Positions 3,792 through 15,147 of a stretch of 64,000 bases of DNA are shown in pieces. The notes under the pieces are model-generated. The model did no database searches and was not told where the DNA came from. It worked only from the letters and a program-made list of their open reading frames with translations. Source of the stretch: Candidatus Krumholzibacteriia bacterium (GTDB taxonomy: Bacteria > Krumholzibacteriota > Krumholzibacteriia > Krumholzibacteriales > Krumholzibacteriaceae); NCBI GenBank assembly GCA_963836185.1, contig CAWIIQ010000001.1, positions 1,792,001 to 1,856,000 of the forward strand, in the 5' to 3' direction. Position numbers and translations under genes: made by a program. The stretch's first letter is position 1, and each line of letters opens with the position of its first letter.

Positions 3792-4742
3792 TTGATCGAA
3801 GTACGGGAACTCTCAAAGAATTACGGGATTACGAAGGCGGTCGAAAGGCTGTCCTTCACCGTGGAAAGAGGCGAGGTCCTCGGCTTTCTGGGCCCGAACG
3901 GAGCAGGCAAGACGACCACGATGAAGATGCTTACATGTTATCTCCCCCCCTCCTCCGGAACTGCCAGTATATTCGGTTTTGACATACTTGAGGATTCGAT
4001 GGAGGTCCGGGAAAGGATCGGGTACCTGCCCGAGAAGAATCCCCTCTATACCGACATGGACGTATACTCATTTCTCGAGCTCGCTGCACGCCTTAAAGGA
4101 GTCGGTAGAGATTCCATCACCGGCTCAGTCGCGGAAGTTGTCGAAAGATGCGGCCTGGGGGATGTCAGCCGCAGAAGGATCGGAAATCTCTCCAAGGGTT
4201 TTCAGCAGAGAGTTGGAATAGCACAGGCCATCGTAAACGATCCTGAGCTTCTAATCCTTGATGAGCCCACGATAGGCCTCGATCCGCGGCAGATAATCGA
4301 CATCAGGTCCCTTATAAAAGATCTCGGCAAAGACAGGACTGTCATACTCAGCTCCCATATCCTGCCGGAAGTCAGCCAGGTCTGCGACAGGATAATAATA
4401 ATCAATAACGGACTTCTCGTTGCCGTCGATACACCCGACAACCTTCGCGACAGGCTGAAGAGATCTTCGATGACAAGGGTACGTATCGCGGGATCTGCCG
4501 TTGCAGCAGATGCGGAGAAGATCATCTCATCGATCGGGGGAGCGCGTGTGATCCGAAGCGAAGAGAAGGGCGGGGACGGATCGTCTCTTCTCACCGTGGA
4601 ATCGGCCACTGACTCGGATATCCGAAATCTGCTCGCCCGGAAACTGGTCGAGGCGGATATCCCTCTCCTTGAGATCTACAGCGAGGAACTCTCCCTCGAA
4701 GACATCTTCATCAGGCTGGTAACCGAAGAGGGAGATGCATGA
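3792..4742 (+). CDS. ABC transporter ATP-binding protein (GldA-like)
   Basis: GPNGAGKTT, LSKGFQQRVG, ILDEPTIGLDP, SSHILPEV, SLEDIF. Confidence 0.92.
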   Translation: MIEVRELSKNYGITKAVERLSFTVERGEVLGFLGPNGAGKTTTMKMLTCYLPPSSGTASIFGFDILEDSMEVRERIGYLPEKNPLYTDMDVYSFLELAARLKGVGRDSITGSVAEVVERCGLGDVSRRRIGNLSKGFQQRVGIAQAIVNDPELLILDEPTIGLDPRQIIDIRSLIKDLGKDRTVILSSHILPEVSQVCDRIIIINNGLLVAVDTPDNLRDRLKRSSMTRVRIAGSAVAADAEKIISSIGGARVIRSEEKGGDGSSLLTVESATDSDIRNLLARKLVEADIPLLEIYSEELSLEDIFIRLVTEEGDA

Positions 4743-5509
4743 ACAAGGCCTCAGCGATATACGGAAAGGAATTGAGATACTTCTTCCAGTCGATTACGGC
4801 CTACGTCGTCATCTCGATATTCTTAGTGATATCCGGGTACTTTTTCTTCAGTATGTTCCGGTATTATAATCTTCTATCCCTTCAATCGATTCAGAGTGGC
4901 TTCGCCAGTGGCGGACTGAACCTGATCGATGGAGTGATGCGGCCCCTTCTCGGCAATATCAGCATCATAATCCTCCTTCTACTCCCCCTGCTTACGATGA
5001 GGTTGATGGCCGAGGAGAAGAAGCAGGGTACGTTCGAACTCCTCTCCACCTATCCAGTTTCAGATATCGAAACGGTATGGGGCAAGTTCCTGGCAACGAT
5101 GACAGTCTACGCGCTGATGATCGGCTGCACCCTTCTCTACCCCGCGATGCTTTTCTATTACGCCGAGCCGGAGATCGTGCCGATCGTAACCGGATATCTC
5201 GGCCTTCTTCTTATGGGCGCGGCCTTTATCGCTATGGGGACTTTCTTCTCCTCACTCACCGACAACCAGATCATCGCAGGTGTCGCTACATTCGGAGCGT
5301 CCCTCTTCTTTCTCGTGATAGGCTGGGCCGCCCCATTCGTCGGCCCCAGATTCGCGGCGGTGCTGGCGCAGATCTCGATACTCTATCATTTCGAATCGTT
5401 CTCCAAGGGAGTGATCGAGACGAGCGACCTGACATACTATATATTCCTGACCACTTTCTTTCTTTTCCTGACTGTGAGATCTCTCGAATCGACGAGGTGG
5501 AAAAGCTGA
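4739..5509 (+). CDS. ABC-2 permease (GldF-like)
   Basis: KELRYFF, PLLTMRLMAEEKKQGTFELL, HFESFSKGVI; ATGA overlap with upstream gene. Confidence 0.9.
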   Translation: MNKASAIYGKELRYFFQSITAYVVISIFLVISGYFFFSMFRYYNLLSLQSIQSGFASGGLNLIDGVMRPLLGNISIIILLLLPLLTMRLMAEEKKQGTFELLSTYPVSDIETVWGKFLATMTVYALMIGCTLLYPAMLFYYAEPEIVPIVTGYLGLLLMGAAFIAMGTFFSSLTDNQIIAGVATFGASLFFLVIGWAAPFVGPRFAAVLAQISILYHFESFSKGVIETSDLTYYIFLTTFFLFLTVRSLESTRWKS

Positions 5510-7059
5510 TGGGCAGTTTGATCTACAGAATACTCGGTGCTGCCGGCCTTCTTCTTGTCGTGTTCGGGGGAATCCTCTACGGGATATTCTACACGAGTGG
5601 ATGGCCGGCCATCATCCCCCTTGTGCTCGGCATGGCGATGACGATCGCCGCTTTCGCGGGAGCGTACCGTTCCGAGAGCTCGGAGGGCTCGAGACGGACA
5701 GCGCGTTTCGGGATAGGTGCCGGACTTTCGGTCGTGGCGGTCGCCGCTATACTGATCCTCCTTCAGACCCTGGCATACCGGCACACTTCTTCGATCGACC
5801 TCACCAGCAACAGCCGATTCTCGCTCTCCCCTCAGACGGCCAAGGTCCTCGGATCTCTTGAGGCTTCCGTGCATCTAACAGCTTTTTACAAGGAGACGAA
5901 CCCTGACAGGGTCGTCCTGATGGACCTGCTGGAAAGTTTCTCGGCCCGCAATCCTGCTGTGACCTATGTATTCATCGACCCCGACAGGGAACCCCTGATA
6001 GCCCGCAATTACGGGATCACCCGTTCAGGTATAGTCTTTGTGGAGTCCGGGCAGATGCGCGAGGAACTGGAGGCTGCGAACGAAGAGCGACTGACCAATG
6101 CCATCGCGAGAGTGACCTCCGGCGGCATAAAGACGATCTGTTTTCTAACGGGCCACGGGGAAAAATCCGTGCATGAGAGCGGCCCCCACGGGATCAGTTC
6201 CTTTCTGGAGGCTTTACGGGCTGAAAATTTCGAAGTACGCGACATTGTCGCTCTCGGTGCGGAACGGATTCCAGCTGACTGCGACATCCTTATCCTCGCC
6301 GGGCCCGAGAAGGACATAATCAAACACGAACAGAATGTGATCCTCGACTACCTTACTGAAGGCGGACGGGCGCTCTTTCTCCTCGATCCGATGACCGAAA
6401 TAGCGAACATCGAGGGTATACTCGCCGCTTACGGGATACTCCTCGGAAACGATGTTATCGTCGACAGGTACGGAAAACTCCTCGCCGGCAACTTTCTGAC
6501 TCCGGTTGTTAACAATTACGGCGTGCATCCTATAACGGATGGATTCAGACATTTCTCGTTCTTCCCGCAGGCGCGATCGGTAACAGCGATGAAGGACCCT
6601 CCTGCCACACTCGATGTAACAGTCATCGGCAGAACGAATGAGGGCGCTTATTCCGAAACCGACATGGCGACACTGCTGGAAGGACAGACCCAGTTCGAGC
6701 CCTCGGAGGATATAAAAGGGCCTGTTGATATAGCAGTCGCCGCGGTCATGCTCTCGCAAGCCGATTCATCTTCCAGAGCCCCGGAATCCCGCATCGTCGG
6801 TTTCGGAGACAGTGATTTCGCGGGAAACTCCAACCTGCGCCTCTCGGGAAACAGGGACCTCCTTCTCAATACAGTTCACTGGCTTGCCGAATCAGAGGAC
6901 ATGATCTCTATCAGGCCGGCCGACGACCTTCAGCAGCCAGTCCTGCTGACAGCTACCCAGGGGCGTTTCGTCTTCTGGATCCCTGTCGTCGCCCTGCCCG
7001 CACTCATACTGCTCGCCGGAGCGGTGATCCTCACATGGAGAAAACGAACCGTCCGGTAG
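5509..7059 (+). CDS. GldG-like ABC auxiliary component (GIFT/IFT52-like domain)
   Basis: True start ATG 5509 (TGATG overlap). IDLTSNSRFSLSPQT, FIDPD, FLTGHGEK, FGDSDF, GNRDLLLNTVHWL, C-terminal TM. Confidence 0.88.
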   Translation: MGSLIYRILGAAGLLLVVFGGILYGIFYTSGWPAIIPLVLGMAMTIAAFAGAYRSESSEGSRRTARFGIGAGLSVVAVAAILILLQTLAYRHTSSIDLTSNSRFSLSPQTAKVLGSLEASVHLTAFYKETNPDRVVLMDLLESFSARNPAVTYVFIDPDREPLIARNYGITRSGIVFVESGQMREELEAANEERLTNAIARVTSGGIKTICFLTGHGEKSVHESGPHGISSFLEALRAENFEVRDIVALGAERIPADCDILILAGPEKDIIKHEQNVILDYLTEGGRALFLLDPMTEIANIEGILAAYGILLGNDVIVDRYGKLLAGNFLTPVVNNYGVHPITDGFRHFSFFPQARSVTAMKDPPATLDVTVIGRTNEGAYSETDMATLLEGQTQFEPSEDIKGPVDIAVAAVMLSQADSSSRAPESRIVGFGDSDFAGNSNLRLSGNRDLLLNTVHWLAESEDMISIRPADDLQQPVLLTATQGRFVFWIPVVALPALILLAGAVILTWRKRTVR

Positions 7060-7072
7060 TGGAGGCTGATCT

Positions 7073-8389
7073 ATGAAGGCCCGCAGCCTCATTATCCTGG
7101 CAGTGATCCTCGTGATCGTAGCGGGATATTTATTCATAATCGACGAGAAGAGGCGCAGTGACTCCGCCGAGGAGGAGAAGTCATCTCGAAAACTAGTGCC
7201 CTATGGCCCTCTTGATATCGATCTCGTTTCATTTATCAACCCGTATGGCGAGACGATCATCTGGAAGAGGGATGGCGACGGTTGGCTCATAACATTTCCC
7301 GTAACAGATATCGGCGAGAAAAGTACCATCGACATGTTTCTCGGCCAGATAGCCCCTGGACAGAAGCTCGAGGAATTCACCGGCGTTGATGATCTTTCAA
7401 AGTACGGACTTGCCCCTCCATACGCTATCGTCATTCTCGAGAGCGAGCGCTATGGGAGGATAGATACTCTTTACATCGGCGATAAGACACAGACGAGTTT
7501 CAGATCGTATGTGTCTCTGGGCTCGTCACGCAGCGTGGCAGTGACCAGGGAACTTGCTCACAACGTCATGCAGAAGAGACTCTTTCACATCAGGGACAAG
7601 AATTTCCTCTCCCCCGCGGAGAGGGACATCGTCGAATTCGCCATCATATCCGGAAACGACACTCTTCCCTTTCAGCGTTGGGGAGATGCATGGAAAGTCG
7701 CCGGCTCGACATTGACCGTGGACCGCGACGTGATCGAGCCATGGGTCATGCGTCTGAGAAGCGCCCTGGTCTACGAATTCGCCGCCGAGGATCTGGCGGA
7801 TACGATTTCATTCGGCATCGGTGCTCCTGGCAGGTCTGTCATCCTGAAAACATCTCAGGGTGACTCCACCAGGATATCCTTCGGCCGAGTTTCGGAATCT
7901 CTCGTTCCTGTCGTGAAATCGGGCCGAGAAAAAATAATGATGATCGAATCAACTTTTCTCGACGCATTTTACTGGACCGACGACCGCCTCATCGTGATGA
8001 GTCTTTCACTCGTCAGGCCGGGAACAGTCGCCGCCCTCCAATGGGAGACTCCAGATTCGGTTACTTCCTGGAAAAAGGAGAACGATATCTGGATGACCGC
8101 GGGGGACGATCCCTCGCCGGTCGATCAGGAAGCGCTGAAGTATCTACTGATGTACATTCGTTCGGTTGTTTACGAGAATATCGTCACAGACCGTGAAAAA
8201 GTCTCATCGGTCAGGCCCGATGTAATGATCACACTTGGCGACGCTTCAGGGGAAGTGCTGGACATCATCTCACTTTACCGCTTCGATGACGGAACAGCCG
8301 GAGGCATCTCTATATCTGGCGGTAATGCCGGCCGCATCAACGAGGGTGTCCTGGCGGAGATATACAGGGCCCGCTCAGCGATACGCTGA
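7073..8389 (+). CDS. DUF4340 domain protein
   Basis: N-terminal TM, LSKYGLAPP, LYIGDKT, RDKNFL; usual partner of GldG; SD GGAGG. Confidence 0.8.
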   Translation: MKARSLIILAVILVIVAGYLFIIDEKRRSDSAEEEKSSRKLVPYGPLDIDLVSFINPYGETIIWKRDGDGWLITFPVTDIGEKSTIDMFLGQIAPGQKLEEFTGVDDLSKYGLAPPYAIVILESERYGRIDTLYIGDKTQTSFRSYVSLGSSRSVAVTRELAHNVMQKRLFHIRDKNFLSPAERDIVEFAIISGNDTLPFQRWGDAWKVAGSTLTVDRDVIEPWVMRLRSALVYEFAAEDLADTISFGIGAPGRSVILKTSQGDSTRISFGRVSESLVPVVKSGREKIMMIESTFLDAFYWTDDRLIVMSLSLVRPGTVAALQWETPDSVTSWKKENDIWMTAGDDPSPVDQEALKYLLMYIRSVVYENIVTDREKVSSVRPDVMITLGDASGEVLDIISLYRFDDGTAGGISISGGNAGRINEGVLAEIYRARSAIR

Positions 8390-8421
8390 CAGTAACTGCT
8401 GTACCAACTTCAACGATATTC

Positions 8422-8430
8422 TGCTATATT
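8422..8430 (+). promoter_or_regulatory. extended -10 promoter, leaderless amrS transcript
   Basis: TGcTATATT, 6 nt before ATG 8437; no SD. Confidence 0.5.
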
Positions 8431-8436
8431 CAGAGC

Positions 8437-9567
8437 ATGATGAACGCTTCCCGCAGAAATATGTCCAGAAGGGATTTTCTCGCAACTACAGCAGGATTGC
8501 TGGCTGCCGGAACCGTGGCCGGAAGCCCGATCCTCGCCGCTGATGGATCTCCGCGAAAAGCTGAGTTCTGGGAAATACTGAATAAGGGGAAAGTGAGATG
8601 TAACCTGTGCCCTCACGGCTGCACAATCGCCGATGGAAGACGCGGAGCCTGCAGGGTCAGGGAAAATCGCGGAGGCGAACTCTTTACTCTCTCGTGGGGC
8701 AGACCATGTGCTCTTCACGCCGATCCTATAGAGAAAAAGCCTTTCTATCATTTTCTGCCGGGTTCGACCTCCCTTTCGCTTTCTACTATCGGATGTAACA
8801 TGAAGTGCCTTTTCTGCCAGAACTGGCAGATCTCCCAGTCCTCCCCCGAGGACCTGGAAACAGAGATCGTTAATCCCGGATTCTTCGCGAAAAAAGCTGT
8901 CATGGAGGGGGCCTCATCTATTGCCTTCACCTATGGTGAACCTGTCGTCTTTATAGAATACGCAATGGATATCGCTGAGGCTGCAAAAGCATCCGGGGTC
9001 AGAAGCGTTGTGGTCTCCAACGGCTATATCGAACAGAAGCCGCTTGCCGCTCTCTGTTCTTCCATCGATGCTGTAAAAATCGATCTTAAGGCTTTCGAGG
9101 ATGGATACTACCGCAAGATATGTGGAGCAAAACTCGACCCAGTCCTTCGTTCTCTCGTCGAGATCCGCTCGAGTGGTGTCTGGCTCGAGATCGTCTACTT
9201 GATGGTACCGACGCTTAATGACGATGCGGATACGATAGGCAGGATGGCTGCCTGGATCCACTCCGAACTTGGACCGGACGTTCCCCTGCACTTCTCGAGA
9301 TTTCACCCAGCTTACCGTCTGCCTGACCTCCCTCCCACACCCGTCTCTTCTCTTGAGACGGCAAGAGAGAGGTGCCTGGACGCGGGATTGAATTACGTTT
9401 ATATCGGTAACGTTGCAGGTCACGCGGCAGACTCGACATATTGCCGTTCATGTTCCGAAAAGATCATCGAAAGGTCCGGATACAGGATACTTTCTATCAA
9501 GATGGAAGAAGACAAGTGCCTGTTCTGCGGTACGGCACAACCTGGTATATGGAGGACAGACTCATGA
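8437..9567 (+). CDS. amrS: AmmeMemoRadiSam system radical SAM enzyme with N-terminal Tat signal
   Basis: CNLCPHGC..GACRVR, DPIEKKPFYHF, GCNMKCLFCQNWQIS (CxxxCxxC), PLHFSRFHP, YVYIGNV; N-terminus SRRDFL + hydrophobic stretch. Confidence 0.92.
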   Translation: MMNASRRNMSRRDFLATTAGLLAAGTVAGSPILAADGSPRKAEFWEILNKGKVRCNLCPHGCTIADGRRGACRVRENRGGELFTLSWGRPCALHADPIEKKPFYHFLPGSTSLSLSTIGCNMKCLFCQNWQISQSSPEDLETEIVNPGFFAKKAVMEGASSIAFTYGEPVVFIEYAMDIAEAAKASGVRSVVVSNGYIEQKPLAALCSSIDAVKIDLKAFEDGYYRKICGAKLDPVLRSLVEIRSSGVWLEIVYLMVPTLNDDADTIGRMAAWIHSELGPDVPLHFSRFHPAYRLPDLPPTPVSSLETARERCLDAGLNYVYIGNVAGHAADSTYCRSCSEKIIERSGYRILSIKMEEDKCLFCGTAQPGIWRTDS

Positions 9568-11099
9568 CGAGACGCGCGGCGGCCTCAGGGATCGTCCTCT
9601 TTATGACTCTCGCCGCGGCCGGCTTTTGCGATGCCGGCCTGAAAGGAAGCGACATGGAACAGTCGATCCGGAAACCGGCAGTCGCCGGACAGTTCTACAC
9701 CTCTGATCCGGACGCACTTCGCCTGGAAATCGAGACTCTGATAAATGACGCTGTGCCACCTGACATATCAGGCGATATTCTCGCTCTTATCTGTCCTCAC
9801 GCAGGATATGTCTACTCCGGGCATGTGGCGGCATCCGGATACGCTCTTCTCAAAGAGGGACAGTTCGAGACTGTCGTCGTCATCTCTCCCTGTCATGTCG
9901 AGTATTTCCGCTTCGCCTCGATCTACGATGGCGACGCATACGAGACTCCACTAGGCCTCGTGAAGATCGACAAGGAACTCTCCAGGGAGATCGCCTCCTT
10001 GAGTGACTTCGTACAGATCGGGCCTGACGGCCACGGTACAGGTCCGCGCGGACGGGGCGAACACTCCCTTGAGGTTCAAATACCCTTCCTGCAGGTCGCC
10101 CTTGGGGATTTCAGGATCGTACCGATAGTAATGGGAGATCAGTCCGCCGACGTGGTCGATGGACTTGGAGCGGCTCTGGCCGGGGCCCTCGAGGGCCGCA
10201 ACATACTGATCGTAGCAAGTACCGATCTCTCACATTTTCATGATGATGGAACAGCAAGAAAACTGGACGGTGAATTCCTCAAGCAGCTCGAAGCTTTCGA
10301 CTCCGATGGTCTGAAGAGATCTATCGCATCGGGAAAGACCGAAGCCTGCGGAGGTGGCCCGTCAGCGGCAGCAATGATCGCGTCCGCAAACCTGGGCGGT
10401 CAAGGATGCACGGTTCTCAAATACGCGAATTCCGGCGACATATCAGGTGACCACGGAAATGTCGTGGGTTATGTATCGGCAGTAATAACCGGAAATCGTG
10501 CGGCGGTAGAATCCTGCATCCACGGTGGAAGCATCGGAGATGACGTCGACCGGGAAACGAGGCTGTTCCTCCTGCGTTACGCCAGATCCGTTATCCGGGA
10601 GACTCTCGACATGGATACTGAGGAGATCGAGAGACCCGATTCACCGATCCTCGGAGAGAAACGGGGAGGCTTTGTCACTCTGAAGAAGAACGGCAGACTC
10701 AGGGGCTGCATAGGTTATATCGACGCTGTCAAGCCACTCTACGAGACTATAGGCGAGATGGCATATTCGGCGGCCTTCAGCGATTACAGGTTTGAGCCTG
10801 TTTCCAGGGAAGAAGTCGATGAGCTTTCGATAGAGATATCAGTACTCAGCCCGGTGAGGGAGACCGAAGATCCATCCGAAATCGAGGTCGGCAGACATGG
10901 AATAATCATTTCGGCAGTGGGAAAAAGAGGGCTTCTGCTTCCACAGGTAGCAGTCGAATACGGCTGGGACAGGGAGACCTTCCTCGATCAGACATGCGTG
11001 AAGGCTGGCCTGCCTCGCGGATCCTGGAAGAAATCAGGGACCACGATAGAGATATTCAGTGCCGAGATCTTCTCCGAGGAGGAGTTGGGACTGCGGTAG
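9564..11099 (+). CDS. amrB: fused AmmeMemoRadiSam protein B (Memo) / protein A (AMMECR1), with signal peptide
   Basis: Start ATG 9564 (SD GGAGGA, ATGA overlap). Memo: RKPAVAGQFY, PHAGYVYSG, EHSLEVQIPFLQ, STDLSHF. AMMECR1: FVTLKKNGRLRGCIG, GLLLPQVA, CVKAGL. Confidence 0.92.
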   Translation: MTRRAAASGIVLFMTLAAAGFCDAGLKGSDMEQSIRKPAVAGQFYTSDPDALRLEIETLINDAVPPDISGDILALICPHAGYVYSGHVAASGYALLKEGQFETVVVISPCHVEYFRFASIYDGDAYETPLGLVKIDKELSREIASLSDFVQIGPDGHGTGPRGRGEHSLEVQIPFLQVALGDFRIVPIVMGDQSADVVDGLGAALAGALEGRNILIVASTDLSHFHDDGTARKLDGEFLKQLEAFDSDGLKRSIASGKTEACGGGPSAAAMIASANLGGQGCTVLKYANSGDISGDHGNVVGYVSAVITGNRAAVESCIHGGSIGDDVDRETRLFLLRYARSVIRETLDMDTEEIERPDSPILGEKRGGFVTLKKNGRLRGCIGYIDAVKPLYETIGEMAYSAAFSDYRFEPVSREEVDELSIEISVLSPVRETEDPSEIEVGRHGIIISAVGKRGLLLPQVAVEYGWDRETFLDQTCVKAGLPRGSWKKSGTTIEIFSAEIFSEEELGLR

Positions 11100-12498
11100 A
11101 TATTTGCACATCCAGGTATCTATAAAACTCCAAAGGCTTCGAAAGCAGACCTGAGTGTAGATTTTCAGGGTTCTTTTGTCCGCATTCAGGATAGAATACA
11201 TCGGCCTTTCTACGCTGCGTATATTGCTTTGTTACATATTGTTCTGCGGCTTCTTTAATGTACTGCTCCATGTGCTTCTTCCCGTAGGCCCTCTCGGCCT
11301 CGAGCCGGTTGTGCTTCCCGCACAGCAGCCTGAGATTCTCCGGTGAGTCGTCCCCGCCCCTGGCAAAGGGGACCTTGTGGTCTATCTGCAGGTCCCACGT
11401 GGACCCGCATCTCCTGCCACCGGGGGAGAGAAAGGAACATCGCCCCTTGTCCCTGGCGTATACCTCGTCACGGACCTTCCGGGGGATATGACGGGATTGA
11501 TCAGGGACCTTGTCTGACCTGGGGTCCTGTATATTCGATTTTCCTGCAGCCGTCCCCGATGATCCCTTCTCGGCCCTCTTCTCCCGCTTCTCTTTTCTCC
11601 TGATCCTCCCCTCAGGGCTTTGTCTTTCGATGTACTCGTCCATCAGAAGAGAGAAGAGCTCGCCCAGCTCAAGATGCCTGTGATACTTCGAGGAGAGAAG
11701 AGAACGGACCCTCTCGACCTTTCGCATGAAGTCCGGATCCGCTCCGAACGTGACCTTCAGCCTCTCCTCGAGAACCACTGTCTGCGCGGCGAAGGGCCTG
11801 CTGCCAGTATCAGGGCTGGCTGCCGGCCCTTCGCCGCTGCCAGCTCTGCTCCCCTTCGAAGTGGCAGGATCTTTACCGCCACCGGTGGCGGTGGAGAATT
11901 TACCACCCCCGTCTAATGTGTTGTCTCCGAGGCTGTTGCCATCGTTCGTCTTGTCTCCGTCACTCATGCAAGCGCCATCTCGGACCTCGAGCAGAGTTTT
12001 TACATATACCGGGGTGACCCTGTCTCGGATAGCGCTCTTAGGCCTGCGGCTGCTGACAAGAAGCTCGACCTCTCTCTTCGAGGCTCCCTCTATCCGGCAA
12101 AGAAGATCAGAGACATTCTCCGGTGTCATGATCCTGGTGATCATCGCGAGGTTGGTCATGCTGACCTTCCCGCAGGAGAGCGAGCGGTAGACAGCCGGGT
12201 AGTCCCTGATGCACCTGGCGATACTTATCCTCCTGCCGGCCGTGGACTCGGAGTATCCGAGACGCTCTGTGCAGAACTCATAGAGAGAGCTGAAGCCGAG
12301 AGGAAGATAGAGCTTTCTTCTGTCTATCTCGATCAGGTGGACGAGGATAGAAAGCACGGTCTTTCTCTCAGTCTCAGAGAGCTTACGTATACCGGATAGA
12401 AGGGCCCTGTTTGAGAGAGACTTCAGGGCTTTTGCTCCAGGGATGGTCTTTGTGGATCTACTGCTGGAACGGATCGAGCTCTTCGTCGTCCTCATCAT
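11056..12498 (-). CDS. DUF222-like N-terminal domain + HNH endonuclease (likely selfish/mobile)
   Basis: LIEIDRRKLYLPLGFSSLYEFCTERLGYSESTAGRRI; SRHIPRKVRDEVYARDKGRCSF..RC..LQIDHKVPFARGG..NLRLLCGKHN; SD GGAGG favours ATG 12498/12495. Confidence 0.85.
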   Translation of the reverse strand: MMRTTKSSIRSSSRSTKTIPGAKALKSLSNRALLSGIRKLSETERKTVLSILVHLIEIDRRKLYLPLGFSSLYEFCTERLGYSESTAGRRISIARCIRDYPAVYRSLSCGKVSMTNLAMITRIMTPENVSDLLCRIEGASKREVELLVSSRRPKSAIRDRVTPVYVKTLLEVRDGACMSDGDKTNDGNSLGDNTLDGGGKFSTATGGGKDPATSKGSRAGSGEGPAASPDTGSRPFAAQTVVLEERLKVTFGADPDFMRKVERVRSLLSSKYHRHLELGELFSLLMDEYIERQSPEGRIRRKEKREKRAEKGSSGTAAGKSNIQDPRSDKVPDQSRHIPRKVRDEVYARDKGRCSFLSPGGRRCGSTWDLQIDHKVPFARGGDDSPENLRLLCGKHNRLEAERAYGKKHMEQYIKEAAEQYVTKQYTQRRKADVFYPECGQKNPENLHSGLLSKPLEFYRYLDVQISTAVPTPPRRRSRH

Positions 12499-12562
12499 CG
12501 TCACCTCCGGGTGAGATCAGGCTATTTATCTCTGCCCCCCATTTGCCCTCTCCATCGGGGAC

Positions 12563-12571
12563 ATTATAACA
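12563..12571 (-). promoter_or_regulatory. perfect extended -10 for the HNH gene
   Basis: TGTTATAAT about 65 nt upstream of the HNH start. Confidence 0.6.
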
Positions 12572-12740
12572 CGGACTTCTGGCGGCAAAACAGATGGCCC
12601 GTGGCGCCTCGCCGGGGGCCGGGATAAGCCGGATGCCGGAATCTTCGAGAGAGGCGAAGAGAGGGGCGCTGAGGTCCGCCTGGCGGCGTAATCTACGGCG
12701 GGCACGCAGGTTGGGGAATCGGGCCCGAAAAAGCCGTCAA

Positions 12741-12882
12741 GGATTATTTTTGGTTTTTGGGGGATATTATTGATTATTTTGAGGATTACTTTTGGGTTTT
12801 CCGACGACTATTCTGGAGTTATCTGGAGTGCTTTTGGGGTTTCGGGATTGCTTTGGGATCTTCGCGGGATATTTCGAGGAGG
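12741..12882. repeat. degenerate ~20-22 bp tandem array (about 7 units, GGATTRYTTTTGGRKTTY-like)
   Basis: Units start near 12741, 12762, 12783, 12805, 12825, 12845, 12866; strongly G/T-biased plus strand. Confidence 0.55.
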
Positions 12883-12915
12883 AGCAGGTTTGAATCCGGG
12901 AAGATAAGGATGGAT

Positions 12916-15147
12916 TCAGTGAACCGGTGTTATTTTCCGTACAAGCAGTAGTGCCGACACTAAGTGGGTCACTGCTGCAACGGCAGCTGTCCAGTCGAGT
13001 CCTGAGAGCGGTATCAGAAATGTGCCTGCAAGCAGTCCCCCCGCGCATGCTCCGAACATGTCCCATGAGTAAAACAGAGCCGGGGGCGCCCCCCTCTTTT
13101 CGGGCCATGCGATCTCCACGACTGTTCGGTAATAAGCCCCGGTGAGCAATCCTCCCGCCAGGGACAGGAACATGAATCCAGCCATCCCAGTCAGATGCCC
13201 GGACAGCTCCGCAGCCTGCAGGCGAAGCCATACAGGGACGAGAACTGCGCTTATTCCCATAAGAACATGGAAGACGACAAGGTTCGATTTCCCTCTCTCC
13301 TGCAGCTTTTTCGCGAAATACGCACCCAGCGCGGCACCCGCCATGAAAAGTGCCGTCAACATCACGAGTGAATAATAGAGAATCCCCGTGAAAGTCTGGA
13401 ACGCGAACATCAATGAGATCTGTACAGTCATGCTGCACGATCCGGTAAGAAATACGGCAGATTTTGCGGCTGATCCACCTCCCGAAAAGGATGCAAGCAG
13501 TATCGCCGCTGTCAGGAAAGCAATCGGGAACACCCATTGAGGCAGCTGGAGCATGCCTTTAAAAAAGTCCGCCGAAGAAGAGCCCGCTCTGCGGCCGTGA
13601 AGGATCAGCTCACGAGTAACGAGAACAGGATGCAGATCGGTGTTGATCATATCCGGCGCAGATTTCAGCACAGAAGCGAGATGGGCCTTTCTCTCCCCGG
13701 ACAACCTCCACACCAGCTCATCGAGCGACAGATAGTGCCCGCCGAGCCTTCTCTCCCGCAGCCTCGCCAGTATGGATCCCGTATTGACCGGGCTGTCAGA
13801 GGCAATAAAGAACACCGTTCCCCCAGGCACCATATCGACATACTCGAATGAAGCAGCCAGGGTCTGCCGGATCGTCCCCAGGACGGCCGCGTTTCCCTCC
13901 GAGATATAGTTTTCCGAGGAACTGTGTCTCAGCGTCAGTATTCCTCCAGGAGCGAGGCTTCGTCGGGCCGCTTCGAAGAATTCCCGTGTATAGTACCTGT
14001 TCCATCTCAAATTGACCGGTTCAGGAACATTCACGATGATCACGTCATAGAGACCCGATCCGCGCAGCATGAACCTCCCGTCGCCGGTCAGATTTTGCAC
14101 TTCTTCGGATATATCAATTATTCTTACCCTGTCTGCAAGGATCCCGTATCCCGTACGCCACAGGCAGTCGTCTAAAGCTTCAGAAATGTTGCCATCGAGT
14201 TCTATCCAGTCGACAGACTCTACGCCAGGATGACTGAGCGCCTCTTCTGCTCCCCCTCCATGCCCGCCTCCGATAAGAAGCACCGCCGAAGGACGACTGT
14301 GAGCAAGCAGGGGAATATGAATCCTTTCTCCTGCTGCCTCCGCATCCGGATGACTGAACAACCGGGCTCCCCCGGAGAAGACCGATACGATCTCCCTGTT
14401 CCTTGTAACGCATAGTTCAGAGTACCGTGAAGGTACGATCTCCATTACCTCGTACCCGCTGAATACGAGCGACATGCTGGCTCTGTCGATAAACGGGGCT
14501 GCCATGTAACCGATAGCCGCGACAAGGAGGACGATCACCCATCCGAGCCTTCTTCCCTTCTCCGATGTAAACAGAAAGACCATCGTTACGATCGCAGCCA
14601 CGGCGAATCCCGCCGCAAGCTGCGTAAGGTATGCGAATAAAAGAAGAGAGAGAAGCACACCTCCCGCTATCGATCCAGCGGCCTCCAGGATATAAGCCGA
14701 AGCTATGCCCGTGGAAATTCTCTTTCCCGGTTCCTTCGTCACCGCGCTAGCGAAATTGTAAACCGCACCGTACAACAGGCCGAACGGCGCAGTAGAGATC
14801 AGGATCAATCCAGCCGCGGGAAGTATATCCGGCAGAGAGCCGGGAGGATCGACGAGCAGGCTCCTGGCCACACGGATAAACAGGAGGACAATCGGGACTG
14901 ATAGTGCAATTGACACCGAGAGACCAGCAAATGTTTTTTCGACCGGGACAGATCGAGGCCGGAGAAGTCTTCCGCCGATGATGCCGCCGGCTCCGATCCA
15001 GAACAGCCATGAGGCGAGCGCGAGCCCCAGGATCAGCTCGGTGCCGGTTATGATCCCGAGGATCTCCCGTATAAACAGAGTCTGCGCACAAACGGCGCAT
15101 GCTCCGAGAGCGATGATCCTGGCTCGTCTGGATTTTCTGTAATTCAT
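12916..15147 (-). CDS. membrane-bound spermidine-synthase-like protein (fused MFS-like TM bundles / SAM-dependent domain)
   Basis: N- and C-terminal TM bundles flank VLLIGGGHGG, WIELDG, GDGR, YDVIIVNVPEP, NRYYTREFF, NTDLHP. Confidence 0.85.
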   Translation of the reverse strand: MNYRKSRRARIIALGACAVCAQTLFIREILGIITGTELILGLALASWLFWIGAGGIIGGRLLRPRSVPVEKTFAGLSVSIALSVPIVLLFIRVARSLLVDPPGSLPDILPAAGLILISTAPFGLLYGAVYNFASAVTKEPGKRISTGIASAYILEAAGSIAGGVLLSLLLFAYLTQLAAGFAVAAIVTMVFLFTSEKGRRLGWVIVLLVAAIGYMAAPFIDRASMSLVFSGYEVMEIVPSRYSELCVTRNREIVSVFSGGARLFSHPDAEAAGERIHIPLLAHSRPSAVLLIGGGHGGGAEEALSHPGVESVDWIELDGNISEALDDCLWRTGYGILADRVRIIDISEEVQNLTGDGRFMLRGSGLYDVIIVNVPEPVNLRWNRYYTREFFEAARRSLAPGGILTLRHSSSENYISEGNAAVLGTIRQTLAASFEYVDMVPGGTVFFIASDSPVNTGSILARLRERRLGGHYLSLDELVWRLSGERKAHLASVLKSAPDMINTDLHPVLVTRELILHGRRAGSSSADFFKGMLQLPQWVFPIAFLTAAILLASFSGGGSAAKSAVFLTGSCSMTVQISLMFAFQTFTGILYYSLVMLTALFMAGAALGAYFAKKLQERGKSNLVVFHVLMGISAVLVPVWLRLQAAELSGHLTGMAGFMFLSLAGGLLTGAYYRTVVEIAWPEKRGAPPALFYSWDMFGACAGGLLAGTFLIPLSGLDWTAAVAAVTHLVSALLLVRKITPVH

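Follow-up and report, generated by a model that had tools for sequence, protein, structure and literature searches.

A putative twin-arginine leader on an AmmeMemoRadiSam radical SAM enzyme suggests radical chemistry outside the bacterial cytoplasm

The window analysed here, a 64,000-nucleotide stretch of the genome of a Candidatus Krumholzibacteriia bacterium, contains an amrS gene directly followed by amrBA, whose start overlaps the amrS stop codon (ATGA). A third gene, convergent with amrBA and located beyond a multi-copy HNH element, encodes a membrane protein with the fold of a transporter. The features considered in this work are the following:

8422..8430, forward strand: extended -10-like element (TG-n-TATATT), which ends 6 nt before the amrS ATG and is seen in the window and in L040-L043
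8437..8538, forward strand: putative Tat signal peptide of AmrS, 34 aa, recognised by SRRDFL at 8464-8481 and by conservation in homologs
8437..9567, forward strand: amrS, AmmeMemoRadiSam radical SAM enzyme, 376 aa, recognised by the TIGR04337 match (395 bits), invariant columns and a structural model
9564..11099, forward strand: amrBA, fusion of Memo (AmrB) and AMMECR1 (AmrA), 511 aa, with a predicted Sec-type N-terminal signal, recognised by profile matches and the leaders of homologs
9642..9656, forward strand: SD-like AAAGGAAG and in-frame internal ATG of amrBA (9654, Met31), a putative second start, recognised by conservation and an SD control
11236..12900 (ends approximate), reverse strand: multi-copy HNH/DUF222 element between amrBA and the transporter gene, recognised by Pfam HNH and DUF222
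12916..15147, reverse strand: 743-aa membrane protein with an MFS fold and a spermidine-synthase-like domain, recognised by Spermine_synth, topology, model and co-occurrence

By every sequence test, the gene at 8437-9567 is a member of the AmmeMemoRadiSam family. Its product scores 395 bits against TIGR04337, for which the cut-off is 220, and 60 bits against the radical SAM profile PF04055 (cut-off 29.5), and the CxxxCxxC motif, formed by C120, C124 and C127 (nt 8794-8817), is invariant in the alignment columns, so that the intact AmrS domain described in the initial annotation is confirmed. Two further sets of conserved cysteines are present, C55/58/62/72 and C336/339/361/364. In the AlphaFold model, residues 41-370 are confidently placed (mean pLDDT 93) and helix 11-27 is of low confidence. 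The closest solved fold is the partial barrel of the PFL-activating enzyme (PDB 3cb8, 3c8f), the best solved relative both by sequence (E 3e-10) and by fold (E 2e-15, rmsd 2.6); it shares CxxxCxxC with AmrS and differs from it in lacking the two extra four-Cys sites and the signal peptide. AmrS falls well below the cut-offs of the glycyl-radical activases TIGR02493 (63.5 versus 231.75 bits) and TIGR02494 (51.7 versus 174.35 bits), and no glycyl-radical enzyme was seen in the conserved amrS neighbourhood. In four homologs (P0180, P0205, P0225 and P0246), AmrS is interrupted near the cluster motif by inteins with LAGLIDADG domains. The adjacent AmrBA matches TIGR04336 with 268.8 bits (cut-off 26) and TIGR04335 with 186.1 bits (cut-off 99), and preserves the invariant His, Asp and Cys residues and LRGCxG. 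The locus thus resembles AmmeMemoRadiSam systems (AmrS, TIGR04337; AmrB/Memo, TIGR04336; AmrA/AMMECR1, TIGR04335) in having three adjacent components above the family cut-offs, with cluster, metal-site and LRGCxG residues intact. Prediction of a complex between AmrS residues 38-376 and AmrBA gave a score of 0.00, to which we attach no weight.

The 376-aa product begins with MMNASRRNMSRRDFLATTAGLLAAGTVAGSPILA. The S-R-R-x-F-L Tat consensus with its h-region, recognised early on, holds up: SRRDFL lies at 8464-8481 and is followed by a hydrophobic stretch with a best 12-residue hydropathy of 1.60. Cleavage likely follows Ala34, judging from the A-F-A or V-F-A found in close homologs at this position. 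Pfam TAT_signal matches residues 8-28 (E 9e-4) at 19.5 bits, under the 22.7-bit cut-off; this cut-off appears strict, given that the leader of a Tat-DUF362 protein of the same genome scores 19.7. The strict pattern S/T-R-R-x-F-[LIVM] plus h-region was found in 8 of ~2381 roughly called genes of this genome. Half of these matches are four related proteins of ~404 aa (C1:1904556, C1:1318265, C1:1320413 and C4:122863), which look aldo/keto-reductase-like, by eye only. Among 120 listed AmrS homologs, one is the window's own protein, and 111 of the remaining 119 carry RRxF/L with an h-region (108 recognised by script, 3 by eye), which answers the initial concern that the RR peptide might lack conservation. 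The other 8 are shorter gene calls, two of which (P0105 = L053, P0112 = L054) show RR just upstream in genomic DNA. The tatABC set sought in the genome is partly accounted for: tatC is present together with a single TatA/B/E-family gene, which is why we refer to TatA and TatC rather than to TatABC. No SD was seen before the amrS ATG at 8437; the extended -10-like element at 8422..8430, present in the window and four congeners, could be a leaderless promoter, although this assignment is weakly supported, as TANNNT at that spacing before ATG shows no excess genome-wide and a promoter scan gave no match. The search over 8200-11100 listed no RNA holder.

To ask whether the leader is functional, we compared 81 AmrS genes from 79 diverse GTDB loci (L060-L139 minus the duplicate L061; 9 labels were assigned by eye). 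Of these, 56 have an RR leader, 22 a Sec-type or anchor leader, two are cut off and one is without a signal. We searched for tatC in 66 genomes, comprising all 22 of Sec type, 18 same-order genomes of RR type and 26 of the 56 others of RR type. The gene was found in 39 of 44 RR-leader genomes versus 2 of 22 Sec/anchor-leader genomes, counts that do not represent independent trials, given the kinship among the genomes and the many incomplete MAGs among them, with completeness unknown for those reached via loci. The contrast covers genomes labelled Omnitrophota, Eisenbacteria, Patescibacteria and Margulisiibacteriota, and the Sec-type set draws on a few lineages, some of its genomes measuring 0.7-1.9 Mb. 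Three genomes of 0.7-0.8 Mb (L066, L084 and L138, two of them labelled Saccharibacteria or Microgenomates) encode a Sec/anchor-type amrS and amrBA, with the transporter in two of the three; tatC was not found in these genomes. Some AmrS relatives have an anchor-like leader without a clear cleavage site.

In a midpoint-rooted FastTree of 291 AmrS catalytic cores, a sample enriched for near relatives of the query, a single branch (SH 96) sets apart the 147 rows that have a leader or are fused to a redox domain (hereafter, tagged), every one of which lies on the same side together with 8 untagged rows, so that the RR peptide does behave as the clade marker that an ortholog alignment was meant to reveal. 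Tat and Sec leader types swap several times inside this clade, and C120, C124 and C127 are kept in 100% of the 147 rows. Two other cysteines are enriched in tagged rows, C207 (68% versus 1%) and C91 (59% versus 6%), but no clean co-varying pair was found, and a clade-specific disulfide was considered without being adopted. Leader type also goes along with particular redox genes. CcsA is encoded in 17 of 17, and ResB in 13 of 13, loci with an RR-type AmrS bearing a CxxCH insert; DUF362 in 9 of 9 loci with an RR-type AmrS without this insert; and a CcdA-like DsbD_2 in 11 of 11 loci of Sec type. Among 23 long or unusual representatives scanned, distant AmrS relatives are fused to FMN_bind (5), Fer4_5 (3) or DsbD_2 (3). 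Modules of the CcsA/ResB, DsbD_2, FMN_bind and Fer4_5 types belong to extracytoplasmic redox chemistry, and the attachment of c-type haem takes place exclusively on the extracytoplasmic side. Given that leader type tracks tatC, that tagged AmrS lie on one side of the branch and that leader type matches the redox module, genuine export of AmrS is, in our judgement, very probable.

In the genome studied here, a Tat-DUF362 gene lies beside a NapH/NapG-like polyferredoxin on C2, and this pair is the best candidate electron donor. DUF362 is present in 13 of 24 clade-bearing genomes versus 12 of 56 without the clade, a tie too loose for a fixed electron donor, and this role was rejected. The polyferredoxin (L200:5772-8947) has an internal RR motif before its last helix, and its frame appears to run into unrelated sequence near the C-terminus, a possible frameshift.

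AmrB partners in clade loci have hydrophobic leaders, many with a lipobox-like Cys, and four AmrB from outside the clade have near starts without a hydrophobic leader. In the window, the internal ATG at 9654 sits just after the signal peptide and four codons before the Memo domain. An ATG at the Met31 position is found in 31 of 31 same-order amrBA genes, all of which also have the upstream signal-encoding leader, versus 1 of 41 other genes; at -9/-11, seven Eisenbacteria amrBA genes carry ATG or GTG, and at -8, GTG or TTG is found in two genomes of another family, in every case behind a very strong SD. That ATG, GTG and TTG replace one another here suggests that selection acts on the start itself and not on an amino acid. 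Pairing with what we take to be the anti-SD sequence is at or below -5 kcal/mol at 29 of 29 tested internal starts versus 16% of 208 other internal ATGs of the same genes, and 28 of the 29 exceed the mean of synonymous recodings in SD pairing, most of them individually non-significant. Exactly one AMMECR1 match was found in 40 of 40 internal-start genomes versus 17 of 56 others, 39 of which have two or more, counts again drawn from related and often incomplete genomes. Where 20 multi-copy genomes were examined, the extra copy is signal-less in 18 (it is signal-bearing in G137 and cut off in G158). The present genome has one AMMECR1 gene and a second, signal-less AmrS on C2, and such a second AmrS without a signal occurs in 26 of 26 dual-start genomes fetched. 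The pattern is not without exceptions: in G017 (98% complete), a single AMMECR1 occurs without a clear internal start, and in G131, G132, G134, G137, G138 and some others, a signal-less AmrS is accompanied by no signal-less AmrA that we could find. On balance, conservation and SD pairing make it quite likely that amrBA has a second start at 9654, yielding a signal-less cytoplasmic form.

The signal-less amrS belongs to a conserved tatC-(ispB-like)-amrS-rsfS-argS cluster (L003:5406-12847, C2 of this genome). In 15 of 20 same-order genomes, tatC lies inside the 6-kb locus of this gene; in the present genome, a multi-gene cassette splits the two. A second, divergent Memo-like protein without AMMECR1 is encoded on C1 (L006:1162-2394), with a Sec-like signal if read from an internal Met.

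The 743-aa membrane protein encoded beyond the HNH element is predicted to form 14 helices, with a 316-aa spermidine-synthase-like domain set among them; the positive-inside rule (mean Lys/Arg of 45 homologs) places this domain outside, with outside loop 3 being more basic than expected (2.36). Its model (pLDDT 90.7) yields MFS and SpeE matches at Z 20-25, with the MFS fold evident from VMAT2 (Z 24.4, rmsd 3.7, 342 residues) and SotB (Z 23.9, rmsd 4.1, 350 residues). The reference motifs of spermidine synthase, presumably the GGGDG loop and the catalytic Asp motif after the YDVII strand, are incomplete: the glycine loop is partly kept (G293 is invariant) and the catalytic Asp position varies. 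Membrane helices combined with a SpeE-like domain are also found in fused MFS/spermidine synthases (NF037959) and membrane polyamine aminopropyltransferases (PRK03612); the window protein is below both cut-offs (23.9 versus 40 bits and 111.5 versus 472 bits, respectively), does not keep the catalytic Asp motif and belongs to a subfamily that tracks exported AmrS. The gene was seen in 56 of 101 amrS loci, many of which are incomplete in extent. Co-occurrence was assessed in 80 of 90 genomes of the same class, outside this order, with thresholds set at score gaps (AmrS, query P0001, at least 350 bits; full-length transporter, at least 448 bits) and with G090 and G091 (300-320 bits) scored as absent: both genes are present in 22 genomes, AmrS only in 2, the transporter only in 1 and neither in 55. 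The RR motif is found in 19 of the 24 AmrS loci of this set, the other 5 having a long N-terminal extension that leaves the examined stretch. The protein is a candidate carrier of SAM or its by-products, with an even chance that it handles SAM. A second protein with a Spermine_synth domain, in a 1049-codon frame (L203, C1:818600), is unlinked to the amr genes.

Other neighbours appear to be bystanders. The HNH/DUF222 element recurs elsewhere in the genome in no fewer than four nearly complete copies (92-97% identical), in addition to a fragmented copy on C3 and a distant one, and is missing at the same place in L040 and L041; it looks recently mobile and was rejected as a part of the system. 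It also gives a weak match to an IscB model. We likewise rejected the flanking genes, Gld-like ABC upstream and nadB/lpx downstream, since they are nearly confined to this lineage and Eisenbacteria. The former, GldA/F/G-like ABC transporter genes with a DUF4340 gene, lie at 3792-8389, directly upstream of amrS, and are conserved within the order; the Poribacteria locus L110 also has gldG-like and DUF4340 genes near amrS.

Taken together, these observations lead us to propose that AmrS reaches the periplasm already folded and with its cluster in place, and that it would there join the signal-bearing AmrBA as an outside copy of AmmeMemoRadiSam, a reading to which we assign a probability of roughly two in three. 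Given that relatives without the Tat machinery swap the RR leader for an ordinary signal, AmrS, its partner and the transporter likely act outside, and radical catalysis by AmrS beyond the cytoplasm is, on the sequence evidence, probable. AmrS would be folded and loaded with its cluster in the cytoplasm, exported by TatAC and cut after Ala34, whereas AmrBA would be exported by Sec when made from the upstream start. The MFS-fold protein would export SAM, or recapture its breakdown products, via the outward SpeE-like domain. Electrons would be supplied by an interchangeable membrane module, here possibly the Tat-DUF362 protein and the NapGH-like polyferredoxin encoded elsewhere in the genome. 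The 5'-deoxyadenosyl radical would then act on a substrate held by AmrA/AmrB. By analogy with the PFL activase, the target might be AmrA's own invariant LRGCxG Cys loop, our preferred guess though held with low confidence, or otherwise an envelope molecule. The form of AmrBA made from the internal start would stay in the cytoplasm and serve the second, signal-less AmrS. The Sec-type relatives count against the proposed export of an active enzyme, in that their AmrS would need to be exported unfolded and to gain its cluster outside. We know of no precedent for such cluster acquisition after Sec export, and it is the most serious difficulty for the proposal.

Three other explanations deserve consideration. 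The leader could be a chance or vestigial upstream extension, with translation starting further down: the public call of the window's own protein (P0021) begins at Met122, and the missing SD and the sub-threshold TAT_signal score go the same way. However, a start at Met122 would drop C120 from the cluster motif. Furthermore, the downstream start that the initial annotation had named as one threat to the leader did not materialise: in 22 of 22 same-order loci a start codon lies upstream of RR, and in many of them a strong SD precedes the leader; downstream starts are not conserved, and 7 of the 22 loci lack any ahead of the catalytic body. With the leader kept across homologs and its pattern so rare in the genome, conservation largely rules out a spurious leader, and we consider such an origin hardly credible.

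Alternatively, AmrS could be exported but perform no radical chemistry outside, serving instead as an Fe-S carrier, SAM sensor or scaffold, or completing the radical step before export. It is established knowledge that SAM and low-potential reductant are cytoplasmic, and the electron donor varies across the clade. A further point in favour comes from the HXS anti-phage system, which resembles the present one in tying radical SAM enzymes to a periplasmic function: HxsB and HxsC are without signal peptides, and the proposal there is that they mature a periplasmic protein before it leaves the cytoplasm, with export limited to that substrate (PMC13128918). Yet the complete retention of the three cluster cysteines in tagged rows, an MFS-fold carrier with a predicted outward SAM-fold domain that tracks the clade, and the inability of Sec-type relatives to fold and act before export all make a non-catalytic exported AmrS improbable. 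The leader might also be a membrane tether or targeting tag, such that the catalytic domain faces the cytoplasm and acts, with the internal-start AmrBA, on a membrane-bound substrate. This arrangement would sidestep the problems of SAM, reductant and cluster assembly, and fits with the predicted signal-less AmrBA and the anchor-like leaders of some relatives; but were the leader no more than a tether, there would be no need for an RR restricted to hosts with tatC, the CxxCH inserts adjoin Ccs/Res haem-attachment genes in every one of the 17 loci, and in many lineages without the internal start AmrBA is only signal-bearing. We regard a cytoplasm-facing enzyme as distinctly improbable, and return to an enzyme active outside.

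An extended version of extracytoplasmic catalysis, which we put forward tentatively and at somewhat less than even odds, is that a clade spanning several phyla carries out radical SAM chemistry beyond the cytoplasm, served by a dedicated MFS transporter that handles SAM and by trans-membrane electron supplies that can stand in for one another. In Tat-less lineages, the [4Fe-4S] cluster would be assembled on the outside once Sec has exported the protein, and a CcdA-like protein would maintain the cysteines in reduced form. In the present lineage, one amrBA would feed both inside and outside systems via two starts.

To our knowledge, no function of AmmeMemoRadiSam has been established experimentally. 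The system in the window differs from the described one in the export signals on both genes, the linked MFS/SpeE-like transporter and the clade-specific redox modules, as well as in the second, signal-less AmrS of the genome and the likely dual-start amrBA. Twin-arginine export of Fe-S-binding domains has parallels, including a NapH-NapG-like polyferredoxin, for which reporter fusions demonstrated Tat-dependent integration (Tooke et al. 2017, PMC5449189); these Tat-exported Fe-S proteins are electron carriers or oxidoreductase subunits, unlike AmrS, which belongs to a SAM-cleaving family. PMC7159879 cites Memo-AMMECR1 systems without going further. As far as the partially available texts go, our literature search yielded no account of an exported radical SAM enzyme or of an amrBA dual start. 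The main paper on Memo-AMMECR1 systems is reportedly that of Burroughs and colleagues in JBC in 2019, which may mention secreted forms.

The usual placement of radical SAM enzymes in the cytoplasm follows from their requirements, namely SAM, a reductant and a fully built cluster that is sensitive to oxygen. Were a clade adapted to export, equipped with a candidate SAM transporter and candidate electron conduits, it would extend radical SAM chemistry to the cell envelope and, if the proposal is true, define a new type of bacterial SAM-handling transporter. Memo and AMMECR1 have human homologs, and an RNA-modifying role for the Memo-AMMECR1 system is one reading in the family literature. A system that acts outside the cytoplasm would argue against a purely RNA-modifying role.
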